A stretch of DNA of 35,937 bases from a virus (IMGVR_UViG_2778261229_000003:1-35937); one strand, 5' to 3'; numbered from the stretch's first letter, positions 4,840-10,077 are shown. Numbers and translations: made by a program. Notes: a model not told the origin generated them from the letters alone.

Positions 4840-5136
4840 TCAGTCATTACTGATAGCGCCATAGCGTGAGCGGTAATTACGCAGGCGCGGGTCGATATAT
4901 TCAGGGAAGTGGGTATATGTGGCTTTGCGGAATGGTCGGATTGATGTCTGGTAAATTCGCTCGCGTTCTTCTTTCTCTGCAAGCCATATACAATGGCGAA
5001 ATTCCTTTTCCTCTTTCGTTTCCTGCGGTAGCGACATTATCCGATCGTAGTTTTTTCTGAATTTATCCAGCACCTCCGATACGGAATTGCCGGAACAGCG
5101 GCGCGGGTCATCCGCACCATACAGAGGCGCTGGCAT
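4840..5136 (-). CDS. Hypothetical protein (98 aa)
   Basis: ORF with AGGAG RBS 7 nt upstream of ATG 5136; no recognisable motif. Confidence 0.45.
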   Translation of the reverse strand: MPAPLYGADDPRRCSGNSVSEVLDKFRKNYDRIMSLPQETKEEKEFRHCIWLAEKEERERIYQTSIRPFRKATYTHFPEYIDPRLRNYRSRYGAISND

Positions 5137-5152: not shown

Positions 5153-5701
5153 TTATTTAGCTAACTTTTTCCAGATCGCTGAAACGTATTTGGCTTGGTG
5201 AATGGCATCATCAAGAGCGTTGTGGCGAGTTCCTTTGAATGGCATATCTCGCTTAGGGTCGAATCCTATTACCTTTCCAAGCTCGACGATTGTTCTTACG
5301 TCGCGGTCATTCCACCACTGCCATGGAACTGGCTGCCCTGTCAGCGAATAACTGTTTCGGAGAATAACGCAGTCAAATGATGCTCCATTCCCCCAAACCT
5401 GAACGAATTTGTGGTTAGCGTTCTTTATGATGAATTCAGATAACCATGAAAGAGCCGTTGAAAGCTCCTGAATGTTGCTGGTTAGCGATTTTCTGGCTTC
5501 TTCACTCTGTTCCAGCCACCATAAAATCGTTGAAGCGTCAGGACGCGCCCGATATCGCATTGATGACTCAAGCGAGATATTTACCGAGAACTCTTCTCCT
5601 GTTTCTCCGGTATTCGGGTCAAAGAATACCGCCCCAATAGAAATAACTGGCGCGTATGGCCCGTTGCCCATTGTTTCAAGGTCAACCATCAAGTGATTCA
5701 T
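5153..5701 (-). CDS. DnaQ-like (DEDDh) 3'-5' exonuclease
   Basis: 182-aa ORF with exonuclease motifs MVDLETMG (Exo I) and HNALDDAIHQAKY (Exo III); AAGGA RBS; sits with SSB and annealase. Confidence 0.7.
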   Translation of the reverse strand: MNHLMVDLETMGNGPYAPVISIGAVFFDPNTGETGEEFSVNISLESSMRYRARPDASTILWWLEQSEEARKSLTSNIQELSTALSWLSEFIIKNANHKFVQVWGNGASFDCVILRNSYSLTGQPVPWQWWNDRDVRTIVELGKVIGFDPKRDMPFKGTRHNALDDAIHQAKYVSAIWKKLAK

Positions 5702-5709
5702 GTAAGTCC

Positions 5710-6216
5710 TTAAATTGCGTGAATAGCGTGACGAGGGAAGGGGAGAGTTACTGGTGCAAAGGGTATATCGTCGTCAAAATCCATAGGTGGTTCGTTGTGT
5801 TGTGCTGGTGATGATTGCTGCTGTGGCTTCTGTGATTGCCTGCTGGCTGCTTGTTGTTTGCTGTCGCCAATGCCGCCAAGCATTTGCATCACGCCATTAA
5901 TTCCGACATGAACCTCGGTTGTGTAACGGTCTTGTCCTGACTGGTCTTTCCACTTTCTGGTTCTCAGCATTCCCTCGAAATAAATCTGATCACCTTTTTT
6001 CACATACTGCCCCACGACCTCAGCCAGTTTCCCGGATACAGCAACACGATGCCATTCAGTCAATTCCTTTTGCTCGCCAGTATTTTTATCTCGCCATTGT
6101 TCTGACGTGGCTATTGTCAGGTTAGCGAACGCTGTTCCTGATGGTGAGTATCGAACTTCCGGGTCTTGTCCTACCCGACCAAGGATAATCACCTTATTTA
6201 CGCCTCTGCTTGCCAT
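5710..6216 (-). CDS. ssb: Single-stranded DNA-binding protein with C-terminal extension
   Basis: OB-fold N-terminus [18 protein letters not shown]..., Gln/Pro-rich linker and acidic tip DFDDDIPF, but ORF continues 15 codons ([15 protein letters not shown]) past the canonical terminal Phe. Confidence 0.85.
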
Positions 6217-6924
6217 TTATGCCGCCTGTTTTAGTTCGTTAACTCTGATGTTCATTACCTGAACGCATTTAGCCTGCGCCTCCTCGTTGCCAGCCATTAA
6301 TTGCCAGTCACGCTGATAACGCTCGATGAGTTTTTTCTTGTCAGTTTCTGTTGATGCATAATCGCTGAAGTCTTTCAGGATTTGTTCGCAGTCAACCGAT
6401 GGAGATTTCTGGTTGGTATTTTCTGGTGATGGTTTGTTATCTGATGCTGGGATTGCCCATCCCGGCAGCGTTGGAGGGAGCCAGTAAAACCCTGTTCCAT
6501 CCTTCAGTTTTGCCCTGTGCCACCCCTGTTTTTTATCGAGAGATGTTTGTGCGAAACCTTCCTCAAGGTTATACAGATACCGACCGATTCCCCACTGAAC
6601 GGCAGCGCGCTTCATTGCACCGGAACGACCACCTTTGACGGCTTCTACCTGCGTGTTTTCAGCAGCATCCCATTTGGTTACCCATTCGGAATCAATCTTT
6701 ATTGATATGCCGCATTCAACGCCGCCGTTGTTGGGAATATCGCGGTATTCATTGCGCCATCCTGCTTTGCCGCAAACATCGTCCAGGCGTTTCATGATTG
6801 CCCGGTTCGTTACATAAGCCAGCACCATAGCCCACACTTTGCCATCGCGTGTTTTACCGCTTTGCTGTATTCGCCATTCGATATCTTCAGGGCTGAATGG
6901 CTCATCGAATTTATTCAAATCCAT
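6217..6924 (-). CDS. Rad52/22-family single-strand annealing protein
   Basis: 235-aa ORF with Rad52-type motifs including AMKRAAVQWGIGRYLY; GAGGTG RBS; adjacent to ssb and exonuclease. Confidence 0.7.
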   Translation of the reverse strand: MDLNKFDEPFSPEDIEWRIQQSGKTRDGKVWAMVLAYVTNRAIMKRLDDVCGKAGWRNEYRDIPNNGGVECGISIKIDSEWVTKWDAAENTQVEAVKGGRSGAMKRAAVQWGIGRYLYNLEEGFAQTSLDKKQGWHRAKLKDGTGFYWLPPTLPGWAIPASDNKPSPENTNQKSPSVDCEQILKDFSDYASTETDKKKLIERYQRDWQLMAGNEEAQAKCVQVMNIRVNELKQAA

Positions 6925-7023
6925 AATTCACCTCAGAATGGACATGGCCCAAGGAAATAACGCTGATTTAATACTTCGACTCGGGACAAATTAAGGCATA
7001 CCCGCATTCCTTCGCGGTCGCCA

Positions 7024-7182
7024 TTATGGCGATACCAGAGAGCTTTCTGCGTGTACATGCGTCTCTGTAACTTGCTCTCCTTCACTGTGGTTGCAAGTGA
7101 CATGAATATCTCCTTCGTTACCGATTAATTCTTTCATCTGACGAATGAATTCTTCGTCTGACCAGTTATCTGTAAAACTCAT
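7024..7182 (-). CDS. Small hypothetical protein (52 aa)
   Basis: Hand-translated ORF MSFTDNWSDEEFIRQMKELIGNEG...; ATG overlaps TGA of kil-like ORF; below track cutoff. Confidence 0.35.
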   Translation of the reverse strand: MSFTDNWSDEEFIRQMKELIGNEGDIHVTCNHSEGEQVTETHVHAESSLVSP

Positions 7183-7331
7183 TTCCTGCGATACCACGGA
7201 AGGTTGATAGCTGATTTCATCGCTTTATTTGCTTCAATCCACATTTTTGAATCACCAATAAATCTGGCTATTACTGCTTTGTTCTGTGCTGCACGAAGCA
7301 TCTGGTGATTGATGGCTATTTCATTGCGCAT
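7179..7331 (-). CDS. kil: Kil-like host-killing/cell-division inhibitor
   Basis: 50-aa ORF MRNEIAINHQMLRAAQNKAVIARFIGDSKMW...; FIGD.KM core recalls lambda Kil; located directly downstream of cIII as in lambda. Confidence 0.5.
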   Translation of the reverse strand: MRNEIAINHQMLRAAQNKAVIARFIGDSKMWIEANKAMKSAINLPWYRRK

Positions 7332-7447
7332 AATAAGACCTCAACTCTTTTCCATCCGTCACGTAATTTACGGGTGATTCGTTCAAGTAAAGATTCATTT
7401 AGTTGGAAGGCACCCATGCGAGCGCCTCCCGCGATTGCGTAAATCAT
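7316..7447 (-). CDS. cIII: CIII-like protease inhibitor
   Basis: 43-aa ORF MIYAIAGGARMGAFQLNESLLERITRKLRDGWKR...; the segment SLLERITRKLRDGWKR matches lambda CIII from memory; AAGGA RBS. Confidence 0.7.
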   Translation of the reverse strand: MIYAIAGGARMGAFQLNESLLERITRKLRDGWKRVEVLLCAMK

Positions 7448-7471
7448 GGGTGGTTCCTTATGTTGGTTTTA

Positions 7472-8440
7472 TTAGTAGGTTATTTTTGTTGCGAATACTT
7501 CGCCTTTTACGATGGCTGTTATGATATTTTTAGCAACATCTTCTGATGCGCCAACCTTGATAAGGTCAGCAAGTATTTTGTTATTTACTTCTTTCCGGTG
7601 AGCTTTATCCTTTGCTCTACGCTCTTCTTCGTCCTTGATTCTTTTTTCTTCTGCTATTCTGGCTTGCTCTTTTGCTTCAGCCTCGCGCCGGATTCGTTCT
7701 GCCTCCTCCTGTGCTTTACGGCGTTCTGCTTCAATTGCCGCATGCTTTTCTCTTTCAGTTCGTTCTGCTGCCTCTTTTGCTTCGCGCTGTGCTCGTTGCT
7801 CGGCTTCAATGCGTTCACGCTCTGCACGTTCCGCTGCGGCCTTAGCTTCTGCTTCTCGCCTTGCTGCTGCTTCAATTTCGGCTTTTGCCTTTGCTTCGGC
7901 TTCTGCTCTGGCTTTCTCTTCAGCTTCTCTTTTTAAGCGTTCTTCATGCTCTCGCTTTTCCTGCTCCGCTTTGAGTCTTTCCTCTTCTCTTTGGCGGTCA
8001 AATTCGCGATCCATCAAAATCGCTATTTCATGGTCAGACTCAATTTGCTTTGCGAGAGCTTCAGCTGCTGCCTTAGCTTCTTCTTCGGCTTTAATCCGCG
8101 CCTGTTCTTCCTCATAATCAGTAAGAGGCTGGCGCGCCTTGGCTTTCAGTTCATCAAGGCGATCGCGCACTGTCTTGCGGTTGGCATCAATTAGCTTTGG
8201 AATTTCCTTAAGTTCAGCAACAAGGTCTTTGCCAAGACCATCGAGATATGTTTTCGTCTGCGCAACTTTATACGCCAGAGAAGCGATCTCCTTTCTGCCC
8301 TTTGCCGTTGTGATATCAGGCACAAAGGACATAACTTCACGTTCAACCTTTTGAAGGATTTCTTCAATCTGGTCGGCAGACTGAAATACAGTCATTGCAT
8401 TTGCTTTTTCAATAACAACTAAATCTGTTACTTCACTCAT
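7472..8440 (-). CDS. ER/K-rich charged-repeat protein (predicted single alpha-helix / coiled coil), unknown function
   Basis: Track ORF 7472-8494; start refined to ATG 8440 (MSEVTDLV) with GGAGG RBS; central ~170 aa of A/E/K/R repeats (EAEAKAKAEIEAAARREAEAK...). Confidence 0.6.
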   Translation of the reverse strand: MSEVTDLVVIEKANAMTVFQSADQIEEILQKVEREVMSFVPDITTAKGRKEIASLAYKVAQTKTYLDGLGKDLVAELKEIPKLIDANRKTVRDRLDELKAKARQPLTDYEEEQARIKAEEEAKAAAEALAKQIESDHEIAILMDREFDRQREEERLKAEQEKREHEERLKREAEEKARAEAEAKAKAEIEAAARREAEAKAAAERAERERIEAEQRAQREAKEAAERTEREKHAAIEAERRKAQEEAERIRREAEAKEQARIAEEKRIKDEEERRAKDKAHRKEVNNKILADLIKVGASEDVAKNIITAIVKGEVFATKITY

Positions 8441-8452
8441 ATATCCTCCGTT

Positions 8453-8479
8453 AAAAAAATCGCCCTCACATTGGAGGGC
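8453..8479 (-). terminator. tL1-like rho-independent terminator (minus strand)
   Basis: Minus-strand hairpin GCCCTC-CAATGT-GAGGGC followed by GATTTTTTT, immediately upstream of the RBS of the ER/K-rich gene. Confidence 0.5.
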
Positions 8480-8541
8480 AAAGAAGATTTCCAATAATCA
8501 GAACAAGTCGGCTCCTGTTTAGTTACGAGCGACATTGCTCC

Positions 8542-8569
8542 GTGTATTCACTCGTTGGAATGAATACAC
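8542..8569. repeat. Perfect 9-bp inverted repeat with 10-nt spacer
   Basis: gtgtattca-ctcgttggaa-tgaatacac in the intergenic region between the membrane-protein gene and the ER/K-rich gene. Confidence 0.6.
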
Positions 8570-8596
8570 AGTGCAGTATTTATTCTGTTGTTTATG

Positions 8597-8624
8597 CTAA
8601 AAATAAAGGCCTACTATGCGGCCT
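8597..8624 (-). terminator. Rho-independent terminator (minus strand) after the membrane-protein gene
   Basis: Minus-strand hairpin AGGCC-GCATAGTA-GGCCT followed by TTTATTTTTAG, 5 nt after the stop at 8629. Confidence 0.45.
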
Positions 8625-8628
8625 GAAA

Positions 8629-9078
8629 TTACTTAACCAATGATGCTGCATATTCGATAAGGTAAAGCTTTGGGGCCAGCCAAATTTTTAACCAAGTCAT
8701 ATTGGTTACTACACCAATAATAAAAATCCCCCACAGAGTCAAAACTCCAACCAATGGCATGATAAGAAGATTAATATCACCTTTGCTATCCCAAACCATT
8801 GTCGGCCTGTATTTGGCATTTCCTTTCTCCCATGAATATCCTTCATCACCGATTTTACCTGTCTCAACTCTTTGGCACTGCTTCTTCATAAACCAGAAAA
8901 CTAGTGGGATTGTTAGAATGGCCATTAATGTTTTAATCAGACTGTCAACCATATTCCATAGCAGCAACTGATGAACAACATCAGGAATCTGTGCCTGGCT
9001 AAATGAAACAGCCGCGTCTATTCCATTGCTGGCTTTTTGCAGTAGTTCTACGAGAATCTTGTTTGCTTGTTCTTCCAT
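8629..9078 (-). CDS. Membrane protein at the SieB position (candidate superinfection exclusion)
   Basis: 149-aa ORF with 2-3 predicted hydrophobic helices (LMAILTIPLVFWFM; LLIMPLVGVLTLWGIFIIGVV); directly downstream of N and upstream of terminators. Confidence 0.4.
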   Translation of the reverse strand: MEEQANKILVELLQKASNGIDAAVSFSQAQIPDVVHQLLLWNMVDSLIKTLMAILTIPLVFWFMKKQCQRVETGKIGDEGYSWEKGNAKYRPTMVWDSKGDINLLIMPLVGVLTLWGIFIIGVVTNMTWLKIWLAPKLYLIEYAASLVK

Positions 9079-9086
9079 ATATCACC

Positions 9087-9413
9087 TCAAATAAGTGGTT
9101 TGCTGCCTAATTTCATTTTCTGGCGCCCAACACAAGTCACACCCATTTCGCTGCGTGGCTTGCTGTACCATGTGCGCTGATTCTTTCGCTGAATACGTTG
9201 CAGGTTGCTTTCAATCTGTTCGTGGTATTCAGCCAGCACTGTAAGGTCTATTGGATTCAGTGCGCTTTCTACTCGTGATTTCGGTTTGCGATTCAGCGAG
9301 AGAATAGGGCGGTTAACTGGTTTTGCGCTTACCCCAACCAACAGTGGATTTGCTGCTTTCCATTGAGCCTGTTTCTCTGCGCGACGTTCGCGGCGGCGTG
9401 TTTGTGCATCCAT
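9087..9413 (-). CDS. N: Antitermination protein N
   Basis: Start refined to MDAQTRRRERRAEKQAQWKAANPLLVG... which matches lambda N nearly residue-for-residue (from memory); arginine-rich boxB-binding motif. Confidence 0.9.
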   Translation of the reverse strand: MDAQTRRRERRAEKQAQWKAANPLLVGVSAKPVNRPILSLNRKPKSRVESALNPIDLTVLAEYHEQIESNLQRIQRKNQRTWYSKPRSEMGVTCVGRQKMKLGSKPLI

Positions 9414-9571
9414 CTGGATTCTCCTGTCAGTTAGCTTTGGTTGTGTGTGGGAGTCGTAGTCCTGAACGAAAACACCCCGCGATTGGCACATTGGCAGCTA
9501 ATCCGGATTCGCACTTCCGGCCAATGCTTCGTTTCGTATCACACACACCAAAGCCTTCTGCTTTGAATGCT

Positions 9572-9602
9572 GCCCTTCTTCAGGGCTTAATTTTTAAGAG
9601 CA
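9572..9602 (-). promoter_or_regulatory. nutL: nutL (boxA + boxB)
   Basis: Minus strand reads GCTCTTAAAAATTAAGCCCTGAAGAAGGGC, i.e. boxA-like GCTCTTA and boxB hairpin GCCCTGAAGAAGGGC identical to lambda nutL. Confidence 0.85.
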
Positions 9603-9635
9603 TCACCTTCATGGTGGTTAGTGCGTCCTGCTGAT

Positions 9636-9726
9636 GGCTTAAAATATACCTACAGGTAAAAGTGTTGTCTATACCTGCAGGTAAATAAAATTGGTGTCAG
9701 AGTTTACCTGTTTGAATTTTCAGGTA
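9636..9726 (-). promoter_or_regulatory. pL promoter with oL operators
   Basis: Leader ATCAGCAGGACGCACT as in lambda pL transcript; operators tacctacaggta (9647-9658), tacctgcaggta (9672-9683) and TACCTG-N10-CAGGTA (9705-9726); candidate -10 TATATT. Confidence 0.6.
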
Positions 9727-9744
9727 ATTAATTTTTTGGATTGA

Positions 9745-9770
9745 TATAAAAAAGCCCGCTTTGCGGGCTG
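9745..9770 (-). terminator. Rho-independent terminator of the cI operon (minus strand)
   Basis: Minus-strand hairpin AGCCCGC-AAA-GCGGGCT followed by TTTTTTATAT, 11 nt after the stop at 9781. Confidence 0.6.
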
Positions 9771-9780
9771 AAAGGAGATG

Positions 9781-10077
9781 TCAGAAGCTATTTGGATTGC
9801 TTGGCCATTGCGGCAATTTTGATTCTACCGGGGTGTGTTTGGGTTTGAGTCCGTTTAAGTAGTCAAGACGCTCAATGGCGCATTTATACATAGCAATCTG
9901 ATCTGATGACATGTCGTCATATGACATGCCTTTGAACTTCTTAATTATCGTTTCTGCCTCATGTATAAGATGCTTCTTCTTCATGAGTTCAGCTGTATGC
10001 TTAGAGCTTACAGGAGATAACTTTGCCCATATGAAGCAGATGATTACAACAGCGACCACTATACCTGGTATAAACAT
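9781..10077 (-). CDS. Small single-pass membrane protein co-transcribed with cI (rex-position moron)
   Basis: Track ORF 9781-10095 (TTG); first ATG at 10077 gives MFIPGIVVAVVIICFIWAKL (N-terminal TM helix) + ~75-aa soluble domain; GAGGA overlaps cI stop. Confidence 0.5.
   Translation of the reverse strand: MFIPGIVVAVVIICFIWAKLSPVSSKHTAELMKKKHLIHEAETIIKKFKGMSYDDMSSDQIAMYKCAIERLDYLNGLKPKHTPVESKLPQWPSNPNSF

Follow-up and report, generated by a model that had tools for sequence, protein, structure and literature searches.

What does a viral protein do that consists of two small end domains joined by a very long charged helix? The question is raised by IMGVR_UViG_2778261229_000003:1-35937, a viral DNA of 35,937 nucleotides (this whole stretch is called the window below), in which a 322-codon open reading frame (ORF) runs on the minus strand from an ATG at 8440–8438 to a TAA at 7474–7472, exactly where the original prediction, made from the sequence alone, had placed it. 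Its assignment to the early-left operon also proved correct; the gene lies between the genes for N and a membrane-helix protein on one side and cIII–kil on the other. The function, given as unknown in that prediction, can now be sharpened: the product of 322 amino acids (aa) is homologous over its full length to Agt of phage phi80, and its gene is tightly linked to phage recombinase genes. We tentatively assign the protein a general accessory role in phage recombination modules, exerted on a host or DNA target, and do not regard it as a dedicated antidote to the phi80 protein GamL, a reading that falls somewhat short of probable. No known structural or replication protein was identified in the gene product. 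The predicted layout of an N-terminal domain, a charged block and a short C-terminal domain was recovered by family alignment and AlphaFold2, with the following boundaries:

7472..8440, minus strand: complete gene, 322 codons plus TAA, for an Agt-family protein (equal to Sf6 gene 33; PHROG 1376)
8102..8440, minus strand: conserved N-terminal region, residues 1–113 (phmmer, family alignment, AlphaFold2)
7610..8101, minus strand: charged helical linker, residues 114–277 (composition, salt-bridge pattern, AlphaFold2)
7715..8059, minus strand: indel-prone part of the linker, residues 128–242 (allele alignment and lengths)
7475..7609, minus strand: C-terminal domain, residues 278–322 (45-column ungapped alignment; AlphaFold2)

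Agt of phi80 (Lula; NC_021190 gp39) and the window protein align over residues 1–322 with 50% identity (BLASTP, E 7e-65). Both are 322 aa long and both are encoded in the early-left operon upstream of a recombinase gene. They share the N-terminal region (at only about 39% identity), a central DHE(I/M)A(I/L)LM motif, the E/R/K helix and a C-terminal ...AI..G.V....I.Y. The GenBank note for phi80 agt reads 'anti-toxin for Gam; Mog (modifier of Gam)', that for gamL reads 'toxic without Mog', and the HF4s record labels its copy 'similar to phi80 Agt; Gam antitoxin'. The abstract of the phi80 genome report of Rotman and colleagues from 2012 is said to describe GamL as an inhibitor of RecBCD and SbcCD, and agt as 'its own antidote, apparently encoding a modifier protein'; lysogens reportedly resemble recD and sbcCD mutants. 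A 2025 survey lists GamL as an anti-RecBCD protein whose mechanism is unknown (PMC12315714).

The genomic neighbourhood of the family was analysed in 261 loci from IMG/VR, which fall into five clades; 248 of these had enough flanking sequence, and their neighbours were labelled by PHROGs and local searches. A same-strand gene for an annealing protein lies within 1 kb of the family gene in 244 of the 248 loci (about 98%) and within 100 nt in 151. In the other four, the recombinase lies further off (one locus), a helicase gene adjoins (two loci) or a RecE-like exonuclease gene is accompanied by a helicase gene (one locus). The linkage spans phages of Enterobacteria, Pseudomonas, Acinetobacter, Vibrio and Sinorhizobium, and coupling is often by 8–12 nt or an overlap. 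Several unrelated families are represented among the linked recombinases: two Erf types, four Bet/RecT types, Sak4 and a further family of annealing proteins, phrog_3290. Contigs for three divergent metagenomic members were mostly too short for use. Gene orders in named phages illustrate the range (fam, family gene):

D3 (Pseudomonas): fam-Erf-exo
phiLM21 (Sinorhizobium): fam-ERF-YqaJ exo-NinB
phi5013-M1 (Acinetobacter): fam-Bet-exo
PhiPLPE (Iodobacter): RecE-Bet-fam-RdgC
Eta (Serratia): fam-x-exoVIII-x-Bet
Seahorse (Vibrio): Sak4-SSB-fam
ST101-KPC2phi6.1 (Klebsiella): fam-GamL-Bet-exo

The partners within these modules are exchanged freely around a constant family gene. Family proteins that are 100% identical adjoin different kinds of recombinase in the E. 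coli, Pseudomonas and Acinetobacter clades, and the recombinases paired with identical alleles are non-homologous (two Erf types, RecT and Sak4). The E. coli allele co-occurs with Abc2 or with MuGam, and most Pseudomonas loci carry no known anti-RecBCD gene. The family gene tracks host clade, not recombinase type. Given this shuffling of recombinases and inhibitors, docking of the protein onto one particular phage recombinase or inhibitor is unlikely.

Placement of the family gene directly upstream of gamL is not a family-wide trait either, and the window does not have it. Among 74 GamL loci from IMG/VR (L258–L337; 75–100% identical to phi80 GamL), a family gene lies upstream in 30, always with a gap of 8 nt, whereas the other 44 have no Agt-family gene within 3 kb. 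None of the 248 family loci from the other five clades has GamL nearby. In phi80 itself, 8 nt separate the end of agt from gamL, and recT and exo come next; the window instead has the order cIII-kil-erf-ssb-exo-abc2 and contains no homologue of GamL or MuGam. A dedicated GamL antidote was rejected as the general function on these grounds, that is, the absence of GamL from the window and of the family gene from 44 of the 74 GamL loci. In the Agt-less GamL loci, either another gene substitutes for Agt or the toxicity of GamL depends on context.

An alignment of 112 diverse members (273–429 aa) divides the protein into the N-terminal region, a variable charged middle and an ungapped C-terminal domain. 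The N-terminal region has seven invariant residues (R49, G70, K78, D85, R88, P105 and E110) and many near-invariant charged ones. AlphaFold2 (pLDDT 87) models it as short helices at 12–20 and 22–37 and a VPDITTAKGR loop, followed by the start of the long helix. The 13 best-conserved residues of positions 49–110 (window 8111–8296) fall in a single 120-degree sector of the helical wheel, and the resulting charged stripe, about 9 nm long, is an obvious candidate binding surface. The N-terminal region is net negative (18 K+R versus 22 D+E) and the whole protein is acidic. Searches of the PDB with the N-terminal sequence and profile returned no match. The C-terminal domain has the consensus D..H...IN..A...L...G..E..AK..V..IA.G.I..V.I.Y, of which the terminal tyrosine (Y322) is found in at least 90% of the aligned members. 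It is predicted to form two helices and a packed tail (modelled alone, pLDDT 96 and pTM 0.71 in AlphaFold2). Its profile found only fragments of the same gene in the protein database, with no sign of domain shuffling. In the PDB, this profile repeatedly touched domain III of RuvA (RuvB-binding) and UBA domains, at E values of 0.03–1.3, a hint that is suggestive for a protein linked to recombination but not significant.

The linker begins with a stretch (residues 114–150) that carries a semi-conserved hydrophobic motif, ESDHEIAILMDREFDRQ, and passes into an E/R/K/A block at residue 151. Residues 151–283 are 61% E/R/K, 25% Ala and 6% hydrophobic, with a net charge of −1. Pairs of opposite charge at i/i+4 exceed those in 2,000 shuffles by 4.6 and 6.4 standard deviations, and the same residues show neither an excess of i/i+3 pairs nor heptad periodicity (no power at period 3.5). 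AlphaFold2 predicts helices at 46–193 and 202–295, mostly with pLDDT >85, ahead of a small terminal unit. Because i/i+4 pairs are enriched, hydrophobic residues are few and a heptad signal is lacking, the block looks, from its sequence, like an ER/K single alpha-helix (SAH) and not a coiled coil, the former being one of the two kinds of spacer that the original prediction had offered. At 0.15 nm per residue, its 133 residues would be about 20 nm long. Linkers of the family measure 97–251 aa (median 182), with 43% E/R/K and 1% Gly+Pro.

Comparison of the repeat region across relatives, which had been suggested as a check, revealed where length can change. The protein has 322 aa in 74 of 75 near-identical IMG/VR alleles, and the same length is kept by relatives of ~77% identity in Enterobacter, Cronobacter, Citrobacter and Salmonella, as it is by phi80 Agt. 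Length variants of close alleles range from 245 to 333 aa, and every indel is single-sided and lies within residues 128–242; an 11-aa tandem duplication and a common 77-aa deletion are among them. This pattern of lengths and indels indicates that the DNA slips, that the ends are untouchable and that length is preferred but not critical. The 245-aa allele lacks residues 128–204, including the semi-conserved DHEIAILMDREF motif (P0165–P0181). It makes up at least 17 clusters at 90% identity, in E. coli and Salmonella, and is probably functional and not a dead remnant.

The family is very large and has no curated model. A homology search confined to the terminal domains, as the original prediction had advised, was productive for the N-terminal region: an exhaustive phmmer search with residues 1–113 reached 4,874 clusters at 50% identity, counted by their representatives, at a threshold of E ≤ 1e-3, and 3,294 at one of E ≤ 1e-10. 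In nearly all of these proteins, which are about 280–430 aa long, the matching part is the N-terminus. In Pfam and NCBIfam, neither the whole protein nor either end domain had a match above noise, even at permissive thresholds, and the same was true of 112 relatives. The match to PHROG 1376 covers residues 1–322 (E 1.5e-109), and PHROGs lists its function as unknown. A word-indexed database queried with the N-terminal domain returned only truncated or frameshifted fragments. In three entries (P0016, P0022 and P0043), the first 70–100 residues of the protein are fused to unrelated sequence (for example a DUF2856 tail or a DUF1233 excisionase-like tail); these fusions could be frameshifts, assembly errors or real recombination joints within the gene.

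As an object the gene is not new, in that dozens of deposited genomes carry copies and the family includes the genetically described phi80 Agt. Its DNA is 98–99% identical to Sf6 gene 33 and to the copies in CUS-3, mEp043, mEp213, HK633, IME10, N7, Sf101 and Stx1a phages, and it is present in 530 of 5,426 complete E. coli genomes (about 10%). The records name it 'hypothetical', 'coiled-coil domain-containing', 'TolA', 'cell envelope biogenesis protein TolA' or 'colicin import membrane protein'. The copies in Sf6 (gene 33), CUS-3, mEp043 ('TolA') and HK633 (gp43) occupy the same position, after a tL2-like terminator and before cIII/kil, and carry no assigned function. The downstream recombinase is the Erf-like phrog_1097 in both the window and Sf6, and in mEp043 it is the other Erf-like type, phrog_155, labelled 'Bet' in the GenBank record of that phage. 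The gene did not come up in literature searches on Agt/GamL, Sf6 gp33 and the mEp phages, and a text search of the 2025 survey, which covers 325 lambdoid phages, met no mention of TolA, Agt or a coiled-coil gene (PMC12315714). Two results may be absent from the searchable literature: how large the family is and how nearly obligate its linkage to recombinase genes is, whatever their type, and, secondly, the evidence against a GamL-specific antidote role.

How might such a protein serve a recombination module? We picture it as dumbbell-like, with two small end domains that would be joined by a charged helix of about 165 residues. The end domains would most likely bind something that is constant across modules, be it a host protein or a DNA structure of a general kind, because one and the same allele is seen with non-homologous recombinases and with various anti-RecBCD genes or none, and the helix would keep the two contacts roughly 20–25 nm apart. 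By analogy, the target area would most likely be the host machinery of double-strand-end nucleases, since phi80 agt is annotated as neutralizing the toxicity of GamL, an inhibitor of RecBCD and SbcCD. The protein would then adjust the degree to which this machinery is shut off or diverted during the action of the phage recombinase, and the 'GamL antidote' may be one manifestation of host or DNA binding and not the defining job of the family. Several points weigh against this proposal. Neither the AlphaFold2 model nor the fold searches point to a binding partner, and the function ascribed to Agt comes from a GenBank note and the abstract of one paper. The common 245-aa variant dispenses with 77 linker residues, so precise spacing cannot be critical. 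The lambdoid early-left gene order is conserved anyway and part of the linkage could be synteny; in the window, cIII, kil and two small ORFs lie between the Agt-family gene and erf. On one metagenomic contig (L167, 5001–6020; P0294), no recognizable recombinase gene was found within 5 kb of the family gene. The neighbours on this contig, a rare exception to the linkage, include genes for ThyX and a CxxCxxCC protein, and capsid genes follow further downstream.

A bolder version would make the protein an unrecognized, near-universal fourth component of Rec modules in phages of Proteobacteria, next to the annealing protein, an exonuclease and an anti-RecBCD or SSB gene, and a molecular ruler, the ends of which would grip RecBCD/SbcCD and a second fixed site on the host or DNA while the ER/K helix set the spacing, with host nucleases turned from phage-killing to phage-serving whatever the recombinase. 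We consider this distinctly unlikely. Rather unlikely, too, is that the protein is a DNA-binding recombination factor, one that protects ends, bridges DNAs or holds ends or single-stranded DNA near the recombinase, in a slot like that of Mu Gam, DUF1351 or gp157. That slot is matched by the place of the family gene just ahead of the recombinase gene (PMC8093625; MM1), and a DNA target would fit both the independence from recombinase type and the conserved face of the N-terminal helix, which is rich in K and R (R49, K63, K71, K78, K82, R88, R92 and R103); most Pseudomonas-type loci, moreover, have no other candidate gene for end protection. The negative charge of the N-terminal region and the acidity of the whole protein speak against it, as do the failure to find similarity to any DNA-binding fold, the lack of detectable homology to DUF1351 and the coexistence of the family gene with MuGam in some loci. 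We give a similarly low probability to a role outside recombination (anti-defence, host takeover or lysogenic conversion) in which the gene would travel with the Rec module through gene order. Early-left regions are rich in accessory genes on the Sf6 and lambda maps (ral, sieB, kil and cIII), the Sf6 record marks a mosaic 'boundary sequence' shortly before gene 33, one family member has thyX but no recombinase gene in its vicinity, and the preference of the gene for host clade over recombinase type is what a host-directed anti-defence protein would show. A passenger of lambdoid gene order would hardly be expected to keep its linkage in non-lambdoid orders, yet the family gene lies between bet and rdgC in PhiPLPE, after sak4-ssb in Seahorse, and after a primase gene and before exoVIII and bet in Eta; nor would it be expected to be coupled so closely, often by 8–12 nt or an overlap.

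The phi80 annotations themselves suggest a toxin–antitoxin-like pair, in which the protein would be a dedicated antidote or modifier binding the anti-nuclease of its own phage (GamL in phi80 and, by extension, Abc2 here). The GenBank wording for agt and gamL, the exact 8-nt spacing in the 30 GamL loci and the same layout in ST101-KPC2phi6.1 all fit. We nevertheless hold it to be very unlikely, given the 44 GamL loci that do without a family member, the 248 loci of other clades that do without GamL, and a window that has neither GamL nor MuGam. Near-identical E. coli alleles occur with the non-homologous Abc2 or MuGam and most Pseudomonas loci have none, and it is unlikely that one domain would fit all of these. 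Least of all do we credit a TolA-like protein of the cell envelope, an idea that goes back to the automatic TolA and colicin import names in many records. The protein has no N-terminal membrane anchor (maximum Kyte–Doolittle mean over 19 residues, 1.03, at residue 293), it lacks the C-terminal domain of TolA and matches no TolA model of Pfam or NCBIfam at E ≤ 1 to 10, and its gene belongs to a DNA-metabolism operon; the sequence itself refutes the idea.

Phage recombination modules are the basis of recombineering and drivers of phage mosaicism. If the family does modulate host end-processing nucleases, as our preferred reading of a general recombination accessory would have it, this would account for the ease with which phages exchange unrelated recombinases, and the protein might improve recombineering in Pseudomonas, Acinetobacter or Vibrio. 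The natural length variants of 245–333 aa among close alleles offer a ready-made test of how much linker length matters.

Within the window, the operon has the order N, membrane-helix protein, Agt-family gene, cIII, kil, two small ORFs, Erf-like gene, SSB, exonuclease-like gene and Abc2. The erf gene starts about 550 nt past the stop codon of the Agt-family gene, on the same strand. The genes downstream of the Agt-family gene and the signals upstream of it are as follows:

7316..7447, minus strand: cIII, the next gene downstream (phrog_550, E 1.6e-20)
7179..7331, minus strand: kil (phrog_2055, E 3.6e-35)
6217..6924, minus strand: Erf-like single-strand-annealing protein (phrog_1097, E 7.6e-130)
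5710-6216, minus strand: SSB (phrog_44)
5153-5701, minus strand: exonuclease-like gene (phrog_255)
4840-5136, minus strand: Abc2, anti-RecBCD (phrog_656)
8445..8449, minus strand: Shine-Dalgarno sequence GGAGG, 4 nt 5' of the ATG (read from the sequence)
8453..8481, minus strand: intrinsic-terminator-like hairpin (8 pairs, 5 of them G-C) and T-run, directly 5' of the gene (terminator scan)

Some of these neighbours are peculiar. The exonuclease-like gene encodes 182 aa that cover only positions 180–362 of the 436-position phrog_255 and match just the C-terminal ends of longer RecE-like profiles; it was detected in 11 of 28 near-identical E. coli-type loci with the same Erf type in a tally of accessory genes, and may be a truncated or stand-alone nuclease domain. 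Between kil and erf, overlapping ORFs of 56 and 57 aa (6933–7103 and 7024–7197, minus strand) match PHROGs 1723 and 2123, labelled 'recombinase' (HK97 gp42 / gp42.1-like), a label that is implausible at such a size. On the other side, a predicted membrane-helix protein of 149 aa (8629–9078, minus strand; phrog_3054, no function assigned) occupies the ral/sieB slot between N and the Agt-family gene and may be a superinfection-exclusion or similar accessory protein.

The gene is a delayed-early member of the leftward operon. Sf6 annotates the site homologous to the hairpin at 8453–8481 as the terminator 'tL2A'. Because a terminator stands directly upstream, expression probably depends on pL transcription antiterminated by N. 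On the minus strand, a scan of 8440–9640 found no promoter-like site, and an Rfam scan of 7000–9800 returned nothing relevant. The 190-nt gap below the membrane-helix gene holds two terminator-like hairpins on the minus strand (8607–8624 and 8453–8481); the second abuts the ribosome-binding site, and its Sf6 counterpart adjoins the mosaic 'boundary sequence' (bsq4). A longer ORF with a TTG start (8494) was rejected: it would cross the terminator and is unsupported by the homologues, all of which begin MSEVTDL.

The low complexity of the linker DNA had given rise to a further claim, that of a quasi-repetitive gcttc/gcttt array that creates many spurious overlapping ORFs. The ORFs were indeed found, seven of 57–160 aa on both strands inside the gene, all confined to the low-complexity stretch, of which they are by-products. 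As for the array, the DNA is only weakly periodic (GCTTCT x14 at 7845–7928 with 63% matches, and also 15- and 18-nt units), and low complexity describes it better than a genuine array of repeats would. Among 72 distinct alleles, polymorphism favours the third codon position (79 sites, versus 37 and 45 at the other two), with 82 synonymous and 91 non-synonymous variants. This third-position excess and the conservation of the terminal domains in thousands of clusters identify the minus-strand frame as the real gene.

In known phages, the map position of the gene is that of lambda ea10, between ral/sieB and cIII in the pL operon. The original prediction was right about this slot, although Ea10 itself (122 aa) is unrelated (BLASTP E 1.4, hhalign probability 0.07%), so that homology was rejected. 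A comparable slot exists in Firmicutes phages, in which the place beside erf or sak4 is held by Mu Gam-like, DUF1351, DUF2483 or gp157 proteins, for which an analogous function has been suggested (PMC8093625). The likeness of DUF1351 (PF07083), Sipho_Gp157 and DUF2483 proteins to the window protein is positional, in that they adjoin erf, sak4 or recT. In Streptococcus phage MM1, the order is Erf-DUF1351-SSB and the DUF1351 protein, with 330 aa, is of similar size to the window protein. The hhalign comparison, which among these three families covered DUF1351, gave probabilities of 0.2–0.4% (0.2% for the N-terminal profile against an alignment of 68 DUF1351 sequences), and none of 113 members had a Pfam match; homology to DUF1351 was rejected.

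Two further comparisons concern the linker. Its composition resembles the charged helical domain II of TolA, which is similarly rich in Ala, Glu and Lys and is the source of the automatic 'TolA' name; the label is an artefact of composition. ER/K SAH domains are found, for example, in myosin VI and X and in caldesmon, and the window protein would, judging by its sequence, provide a clean example of a long one from a bacterial virus. With these domains the analogy is physical only: the linker of the window protein is 25% Ala and joins two small end domains that are specific to phages.

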